64,000 nucleotides of DNA, taken from NCBI GenBank assembly GCA_902530685.1, contig CACAAZ010000001.1, positions 31,090-95,089 on the forward strand, given 5' to 3'. This DNA is from an uncultured Alphaproteobacteria bacterium. Lineage in GTDB: Bacteria; Pseudomonadota; Alphaproteobacteria; HIMB59; GCA-002718135. Under the pieces are notes generated by a model. That model was given only the letters and a program-made list of their open reading frames with translations, made no database searches and was not told the DNA's origin. Shown here piece after piece: positions 50,564 through 50,668 of the stretch (positions are counted from its first letter, which is position 1; each line of letters opens with the position of its first letter). The translations under genes and the position numbers were made by a program.

Positions 50564-50668
50564 TTAATCAATTTCACATGCGTAAACATATTTGTGACCT
50601 AAAAGTTCAAGACCAAAATGAAGGCCTCCTAAGCCTGAAAATAGATCAATAAATTTTAATTTTGCCAT
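50564..50668 (-). pseudogene. 34-aa N-terminal stub of a second C5 DNA methyltransferase
   Basis: Minus-strand ORF [34 protein letters not shown] carries motif I (DLFSGLGG) and motif II (ACEID) only. Its TAA is immediately followed by the helicase ATG. Confidence 0.6.

Follow-up and report, generated by a model that had tools for sequence, protein, structure and literature searches.

Defense islands and hotspots bounded by core genes are a known concept. At a finer scale, Furuta, Abe and Kobayashi (2010) described allelic substitution as a class of restriction-modification (RM) rearrangements that takes place at a fixed chromosomal locus (PMC2853133). Such a locus in Xanthomonas retains a short leftover ORF of 125 bp, and a short N-terminal fragment of an m5C M gene is found in H. 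pylori (PMC2853133). Among individual RM systems, CglI and NgoAVII combine Z1 ATPases with m5C methylases (PMC4267653).

Here we analyze a 64-kb stretch of DNA from an uncultured alphaproteobacterium (64,000 nucleotides; hereafter the window), in which a 34-codon ORF lies between a Cas4-like nuclease gene and a helicase gene. As in allelic substitution, homologous flanks enclose non-homologous RM modules of different types in related genomes. Depending on the genome, the site holds Type III-like gene pairs, a C5 cytosine methyltransferase gene (dcm) with a Z1 gene, dcm with an MTaX1 gene, or a cassette of one helicase and two methyltransferases, which is the arrangement in the window. The locus differs from the described cases in its host, which belongs to an uncultured marine alphaproteobacterial lineage known from single-cell genomes and metagenomes, and in having nested breakpoints that can be aligned within one dcm gene (codons ~0-3, 34 and ~136). 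We conclude that the event is an ordinary, already described allelic substitution of RM systems, and a clean example of it from an uncultured marine lineage.

A 34-codon ORF with the first two motifs of a C5 methyltransferase

The ORF itself occupies little more than a hundred nucleotides:

50564..50668, minus strand: very likely the 5' remnant of a C5 cytosine methyltransferase gene; 34 codons plus TAA, with motifs I (FSGLGG) and II (ACEID) only

The minus strand of 50564-50668 reads ATG GCA AAA ... GAA ATT GAT TAA and translates to 34 amino acids. An earlier reading of the DNA, made from the sequence alone, had proposed that this ORF keeps motifs I and II of a C5 methyltransferase and then stops, while allowing that the resemblance might prove non-significant in a profile search. 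The translation agrees with the proposal, and the resemblance is significant: residues 4-34 match positions 1-31 of the 324 in PF00145 (C-5 DNA methylase; E=7.2e-6) with a score of 26.1 bits, above the curated gathering cut-off of 22, and a custom dcm HMM built for this analysis gave E=1e-12. DLFSGLGG and ACEID stand in register with the start of PF00145 and also align to the dcm proteins of three relatives (L019, L025 and L030, described below).

Motifs I and II belong to the AdoMet-binding part of the C5 methyltransferase fold. The ORF shares with C5 methyltransferases (PF00145/TIGR00675) both motif I (F-x-G-x-G-G, including the FxGxG AdoMet loop) and motif II (an acidic E-x-D after a beta strand, with the ribose-binding acidic residue). 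Motif IV (the PCQ catalytic cysteine), motif VI (ENV), motif VIII, the TRD and motifs IX and X are absent; the ORF stops after codon 34, and the codons that follow its TAA encode a canonical helicase N-terminus. Because motif IV and all later motifs are missing, the ORF cannot methylate DNA and is a fragment, not an enzyme. We consider it very probably a non-functional remnant that comprises the first 34 codons of the C5 cytosine methyltransferase gene formerly resident here, and we call it the stub below. When the L019 dcm was used as a tblastn query, it matched the window at 50668-50567, and the only dcm-like pieces in the 64-kb window were the stub and a C5 methyltransferase gene further downstream.

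The stub also contains a terminator-like hairpin at 50622-50636 on the minus strand (AGGCTTAGGAGGCCT + TCATTTTGGT), the sole one in 44800-51900. This amounts to one weak match against 1.5 expected at random. A change specific to the stub, F16L (TTT to CTT), should strengthen the stem of the hairpin, as judged by eye on the sequences and not by folding.

Related genomes carry an intact dcm at the same position

We located dcm orthologs through the neighboring Cas4-like gene, which is separated from the stub by a very short spacer:

50674..51438, minus strand: Cas4-like PD-(D/E)XK nuclease gene, left flank of the island (PDDEXK_1, E=8e-11; 254 aa)
50669..50673, minus strand: 5-nt spacer from the Cas4-like stop to the stub ATG (GTC TAA ttaaa ATG on the minus strand)

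Close relatives of the Cas4-like protein come from marine metagenomes and single-cell genomes ('uncultured Alphaproteobacteria bacterium AG-...'). The sequence-only reading had supposed that a cassette replaced the body of an older dcm gene and had called for a search for relatives in which the Cas4-like gene is followed by the full-length gene; three sister genomes or contigs have it. In the single-cell genome AG-913-M07 (L019), a Cas4-like gene that is 95% identical in amino acids and 93% in nucleotides is followed, after 5 nt, by a dcm of 473 aa that covers positions 1-321 of the 324 in PF00145. AG-404-D18 (L025) has an intact ortholog of 464 aa at this site, and contig MDSZ01250135 (L030) has an intact dcm of 471 aa located 6 nt past the Cas4-like gene. 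The stub is identical to the N-terminus of the L019 dcm at 29 of 34 amino acids (85%) and 94 of 102 nucleotides (92%), and nucleotide homology to L019 and L025 ends at its stop codon, which bears out the supposed replacement of the dcm body. The Cas4-like/dcm spacing is 5 nt in L019, L025 and a set of contigs with a shortened dcm (L009-L018), and 6 nt in L030; the 5-nt spacer of the window appears to be inherited from this ancestral arrangement. Another copy of the stub, on a Tara scaffold (L110), matches the L019 dcm at 33 of 34 amino acids (97%), and because of this agreement we take it to be a near-ancestral allele.

The gene content behind the intact dcm indicates what kind of module was lost. 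In L019 and L025, dcm is followed by genes for a HATPase_c_3 protein, a Z1-domain protein (with LysM) and a DUF4420 PD-(D/E)XK protein. The PADLOC 'Type II helicase domain protein' model matches the Z1 protein of this type, and with the NCBIfam models MzaC and MzaD the Z1 and DUF4420 proteins score far short of the cut-offs. The L019/L025 parent module resembles CglI/NgoAVII-type systems in pairing an m5C methyltransferase with a Z1 protein (PMC4267653), but it differs from them in the added HATPase_c_3 and DUF4420 genes and in the LysM domain of the Z1 protein. In addition, no PLD/B3 R-protein was identified for the L019 module, and a Z1-type system is absent from the window. Remnants of dcm, including its 3' end, or of the HATPase_c_3, Z1 or DUF4420 genes were not found elsewhere in the 64-kb window.

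The contig L030 has a different partner (L030:2553-4028). Its dcm, 79% identical in amino acids to that of L019, is paired with a single MTaX1 / PD-(D/E)XK protein of 491 aa and not with HATPase_c_3, Z1 and DUF4420 proteins. In this contig the restriction partner appears to have been exchanged while the methylase was kept. The older dcm had been thought to be paired with the Cas4-like nuclease; its partners are instead HATPase_c_3, Z1 and DUF4420 proteins in L019 and L025 or MTaX1 in L030, so that it was the modification gene of restriction modules and not a partner of the Cas4-like gene.

A three-gene cassette abuts the stub

The DNA that replaces the rest of dcm encodes three proteins:

48053..50563, minus strand: SF2 helicase (ResIII/Helicase_C by Pfam; 836 aa)
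46445..48049, minus strand: N6/N4 DNA methyltransferase (PF01555, E=1e-19; PADLOC MTase_II, E=4e-56; 534 aa)
45319..46488, minus strand: complete C5 DNA methyltransferase (PF00145 positions 1-323 of 324, E=2e-78; TIGR00675)
50561..50566, minus strand: putative recombination junction, where the stub TAA (50566-50564) abuts the helicase ATG (50563-50561) in the same frame

The helicase has a weak, sub-threshold match to the Vsr-fold REase_MTES_1575 at its N-terminus, and the PADLOC mREase_IV model matches its core (E=1e-60). Its family comprises 2,119 matches, typically of 835-870 aa and with an N-terminus of the form M-x-L-x-x-F-L, as in the window; the window helicase is full length for this family, with a start that is native to it. 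The probable start of the third gene is the ATG at 46470, to which the gene call at 4393 of L027, a further assembly of this locus, maps. That a complete, different C5 methyltransferase closes the operon downstream, as the sequence-only reading had stated, is correct, and this protein is only 31% identical to the L019 dcm, so that its kinship with the parent of the stub does not go beyond membership of one family. Neighboring genes of the operon overlap or are separated by gaps of 3 nt, and the GC content of the cassette (22-27%) is slightly below that of the flanks (27-32%). Two other loci (L006 and L007; helicase 51% identical in amino acids) contain the same three genes in the same order among other neighbors, with a 93-nt spacer upstream of the helicase and no stub. 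Because this order recurs beside unrelated neighbors, the helicase, N6-methyltransferase and C5-methyltransferase genes appear to be a transferable unit.

The two halves of the junction can be traced to different sources. As the earlier reading had described, the stub TAA stands immediately before the helicase ATG and the stub begins 5 nt past the Cas4-like stop. With blastn, L019 aligns to the window from 51445 to 50552 at 93% identity, and the end-points on the window are 50563 for L025 and 50566 for L009 and L010. The homology of L019, L021 and L008 to the window picks up again only at 40533-40828, at cobB. On the cassette side, an 857-nt scaffold (L029) carries the first 178 nt of the helicase gene at 94% nucleotide identity in another context. 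Its homology with the window runs from 50566 and begins exactly at TAAATG, and the L029 sequence there is ...catataaATGgac. In the alignment, the TAA is where cassette homology in L029 sets in, and homology to the old dcm is lost immediately 5' of it. Since L029 likewise has TAA-ATG at the start of the helicase gene, the stop codon of the stub probably came with the 5' edge of the cassette.

L029 (1-857) has a peculiarity of its own: its helicase gene is present as a 60-aa 5' stub that overlaps a convergent PKD-domain-like gene. It may be another scar of this type, or the scaffold may be chimeric.

The identical junction was recovered in four independent assemblies, namely the window, two Logan assemblies (L027 and L028; 99.6% nucleotide identity to the window) and the Tara scaffold L110 (96.9% identity over 1,091 ungapped nt). 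Because L027, L028 and L110 come from other samples and carry the same junction, it is real and not an assembly artefact. The presence of the junction in L110 also implies that the modules were swapped before about 3% sequence divergence had accumulated. If the stub had arisen by local duplication from the 5' end of the C5 methyltransferase gene in the cassette (45319-46488), or as an assembly chimera, this would account for the fact that both sequences are dcm-like and lie in the same operon. However, a direct comparison shows the stub to be a different gene, with 50% identity to the cassette methyltransferase over 28 aa and no nucleotide similarity, against 85-97% identity to the N-terminus of the L019 dcm, and a chimera is at odds with recovery of the junction in four independent assemblies. 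The identity comparisons and the shared junction refute both, and we give these two explanations practically no weight.

A further break was seen near this region. In L110 (1044-1172), homology to the helicase ends at window position ~49725, the ORF stops at 279 aa and the last 81 nt are unrelated. The contig L005 begins 48 nt before the end of the L110 homology. The break in L110 is either another breakpoint or an assembly-graph break.

Microhomology at the junction had also been suggested, but none that we found is convincing: at most 1 nt would be common to the two parents (T, if the dcm parent read GAT TCx as in L025/L009). A shifted ATTTAAAT match between an L019-type dcm (GAT AAA CAT TTA AAT) and helicase codons 2-4 was rejected as an AT-rich coincidence, because the helicase start is native to its family and the cassette homology in L029 starts at TAAATG. 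The donor context of the cassette is represented by only 51 nt of one short scaffold (L029), from which the exact break and any microhomology cannot be fixed. A search for terminal direct or inverted repeats around the cassette (40400-50800) gave only short, AT-rich, low-identity matches of the kind expected by chance. No IS elements, flanking repeats or target duplication were found at the cassette, in which respect the locus differs from allelic substitution as described.

The stub diverges faster than its flanks

If the stub is a remnant, its sequence should be under little constraint. Over the first 34 codons, the intact dcm genes of L019 and L025 differ by 15 synonymous and 4 non-synonymous changes (omega 0.03), and the stub differs from L019 by 3 synonymous and 5 non-synonymous changes (omega 0.42). 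Polarization against L019, L030 and L025 (intact) and L009 (truncated at about codon 136) identified seven changes specific to the window stub. Five of these are non-synonymous and alter amino acids on which the four longer dcm copies all agree (A11S, F16L in motif I, I/L18F, R22L and C27Y; Fisher p 0.01-0.03). Comparison of the window with L110 shows differences at 8 of 102 nt (7.8%) in the stub and at 26 of 989 (2.6%) in the flanks (p=0.010), and the ratio of synonymous to non-synonymous codon changes is 1:6 in the stub, 13:8 in the helicase and 4:1 in the 3' end of the Cas4-like gene. These tests rest on 7-8 substitutions in 102 nt, and on such small counts the stub appears to evolve at roughly three times the rate of its flanks, with most of the changes non-synonymous, as a decaying remnant would. 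The stub allele of L027 (~177-296) additionally has G15A (GGC to GCT) in the AdoMet-binding loop of motif I, a further sign that this motif is no longer constrained.

These data also bear on whether the stub could be a working small protein, such as a fragment that binds AdoMet, or the N-terminal subunit of a C5 methyltransferase that is split in two and has its other half encoded nearby. Its PF00145 match lies above the curated cut-off, and the two motifs that it keeps are those of the AdoMet-binding part of the fold. Split and partial m5C methyltransferase genes are also known (PMC2853133). Nevertheless, the window contains no ORF with motifs IV-X that lacks motif I, since its other dcm is complete, and 34 amino acids cannot form a Rossmann-like domain. 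The loss of otherwise invariant residues (F16L in motif I; G15A in L027) and the faster divergence of the stub relative to its flanks speak against a functional protein as well, which we regard as very improbable.

The sequence-only reading had offered a different reason for the survival of the stub, namely translational coupling. As an upstream ORF, the stub would let ribosomes terminate at the TAA and re-initiate at the adjacent ATG, coupling the helicase to the Cas4-like/dcm signals. No spacer separates the stop codon from the in-frame start codon, the whole operon is tightly packed, and the stub ATG is kept without an internal stop in all four assemblies, which are up to 3% diverged. However, constraint on the stub peptide is relaxed, and homologous helicases do without a leader ORF: L006 and L007 have the 93-nt spacer, L029 has no ORF upstream, and a leader conserved with the helicase was not found across these relatives. 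The TAA-ATG adjacency is also present in L029 and was probably carried by the cassette rather than selected at the junction. An in-frame outcome has a prior of 1 in 3, and the chance probability that a 34-codon ORF stays intact after 7-8 substitutions is around 0.7 (an estimate, not a computed value). The intact ORF is therefore what neutrality predicts over ~3% divergence, and it is compatible with selection on the ORF as such too. A promoter scan gave 49 promoter-like sites, compared to 51.6 expected in DNA of 27% GC. On this evidence we think it unlikely that the stub is kept for coupling, and we favor its being a decaying remnant.

The Cas4-like gene borders a variable island

The Cas4-like protein has weak similarity to Cas4 and 2+2 conserved cysteines (invariant C29, C32, C244 and C247). 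Its 1,829 homologs, at 40-48% identity, come from Patescibacteria, Planctomycetes, Chlamydiae and others. Exact-match searches with the window protein and with P0296 gave no match. Among 80 metagenomic loci with distant Cas4-like relatives, dcm lies directly downstream only in the close relative L030. Other genes follow the Cas4-like gene elsewhere: a Type III-like pair of N6_N4 methyltransferase and ResIII/RE_endonuc in L008/L020, another of N6_N4 methyltransferase and ResIII in L021/L024, a P-loop protein in L001, Dnd-like genes in L002 and fatty-acid genes in L003, L023 and L026. We had taken the L001 gene for a Z1-domain protein on account of its GKT loop, but withdrew this assignment when Pfam and blastp did not support it. 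Because the Cas4-like gene occurs with all of these different contents, it is the conserved left flank of a hypervariable island and not a partner of dcm.

On the other side of the cassette, the window continues as follows:

40534..45318: segment between dcm and cobB, beyond the cassette, with no counterpart in L019 (blastn, Pfam, reading frames); it holds a start-less ORF of ~114 codons and polysaccharide-lyase-like, ABM, DUF3764, SnoaL, 2OG-Fe(II) oxygenase and pirin genes
37562..40533: right flank of the island, with a CobB-type Sir2 gene, a tyrosine recombinase gene, a 141-aa ORF and AhpC (Pfam, NCBIfam)
39796-40530, plus strand: CobB-type Sir2 deacetylase
38573-39652, minus strand: tyrosine recombinase (Phage_integrase; weak XerD/XerC similarity)

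The right flank has 80-90% nucleotide homology to L008, L019, L021 and L024. Different RM modules thus lie between shared flanks, the Cas4-like gene on one side and cobB with the integrase on the other, in sister genomes. The Sir2 protein was considered as a defense gene and rejected, as it is a CobB-type deacetylase. The locus resembles a defense island in having a conserved core gene on each side (the Cas4-like gene; cobB with the tyrosine recombinase) and variable defense cargo between them. It differs in that part of the window cargo is metabolic, and in that the recombinase is conserved in all variants, where it has a putative role in the swaps.

Several features of the island interior and right border deserve description. 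The tyrosine recombinase gene adjoins cobB at the right border in all relatives, and its identity to them ranges from 77% (L019) to 99.7% (L021), with cobB at 92-97%. Directly 3' of the cassette C5 methyltransferase gene, the frame of ~114 codons (44958-45302, minus strand) lacks an ATG, GTG or TTG start, and neither Pfam nor any of the loci retrieved gave a match to it; it could be what is left of the 3' part of a gene, or a gene whose start is unusual. The 2OG-Fe(II) oxygenase gene (window 41951-42567) is 98.4% identical in nucleotides to L008/L020 6685-7301, and the ABM gene (43510-43905) is 92.7% identical to L019 7054-7449. In L008/L020 and L019, respectively, the counterparts are situated on the opposite side of the Cas4-like gene. 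A block of metabolic genes has changed sides of the island. The 2OG gene stands out from its surroundings (80-92%) by its much higher similarity, which suggests a recent transfer.

The left border has been broken more than once. In L009-L018, dcm keeps ~136 codons and is fused in frame to ~160 unrelated residues, giving a chimeric ORF of 299 aa that looks like a second, independent truncation of the same dcm. In L008/L020, L021/L024 and L001, the point at which homology is lost coincides with the dcm start or lies no more than ~9 nt from it. Because the same dcm has been broken independently at several points, the left island border would be a series of illegitimate breakpoints, bounded by a gene that cannot be lost, and not a fixed attachment site.

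The chimeric ORF (L009:1157-2056; also L010-L017) covers only positions 1-138 of PF00145, and its nucleotide homology to L025 ends at about codon 136. The last ~160 aa have no match, and a MORN-repeat gene follows. In the single-cell genome AG-920-K10 (L022:679-2414), dcm is inverted: it lies on the minus strand, is convergent with the Cas4-like gene and overlaps the end of that gene. The last ~40 residues of the Cas4-like protein are missing there, the arrangement of an inversion with one end in each gene.

Discussion

Our explanation, in which we have high confidence as a whole, is that the stub is the scar of one RM module swapped for another. The ancestral order in this clade of AT-rich marine alphaproteobacteria was the Cas4-like gene, 5 nt, dcm, its restriction partner genes, cobB and the tyrosine recombinase. 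In the window lineage, dcm from codon 35 onward was lost along with the restriction partners, and the remaining 102 nt were joined directly to the native TAA ATG edge of an incoming RM cassette that encodes a Vsr-like nuclease/SF2 helicase, an N6/N4 methyltransferase and a C5 methyltransferase. We infer a single event, and illegitimate (non-homologous) recombination as its mechanism. The TAA of the cassette would have fallen in the dcm frame by chance, creating the 34-codon ORF. Since then the stub has drifted without protein-level constraint, as its small number of changes indicates. The cassette is presumably transcribed with, or just 3' of, the Cas4-like gene from the former dcm signals, and the stub would persist because a clean 105-nt deletion between two needed genes has not yet occurred. 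The earlier view of the stub as a recombination scar that documents module shuffling in a defense locus is upheld by the intact dcm in sister genomes and by the break in homology at the stub. The window also differs from L019 by six metabolic genes that stand between the cassette and cobB, and the two arrangements may therefore be separated by several events.

A more elaborate possibility is that a '5'-anchored' replacement hotspot adjoins the Cas4-like gene, where one RM module after another is plugged in behind a resident promoter and translation start, and the nested 5' stubs (dcm codons ~3, 34 and ~136; the 60-aa helicase stub of L029) are used as leader ORFs that pass ribosomes on to the new operon. 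We consider this unlikely. If it were true, the scar would be a functional expression adaptor and not junk.

Our results also correct a mis-annotation, as the stub passes the Pfam DNA_methylase threshold, and the 299-aa chimeric 'dcm' of L009-type contigs does likewise. As a textbook pseudogene scar, the stub opens no new mechanism. It does provide an example of defense-module exchange, resolved to the base pair, in very AT-rich and probably streamlined marine alphaproteobacteria. The exchange would have proceeded by illegitimate recombination, with variable left end-points beside a conserved gene, and not by site-specific insertion. The old methylase and its restriction partners were removed together, as expected if loss of the methylase only were lethal.
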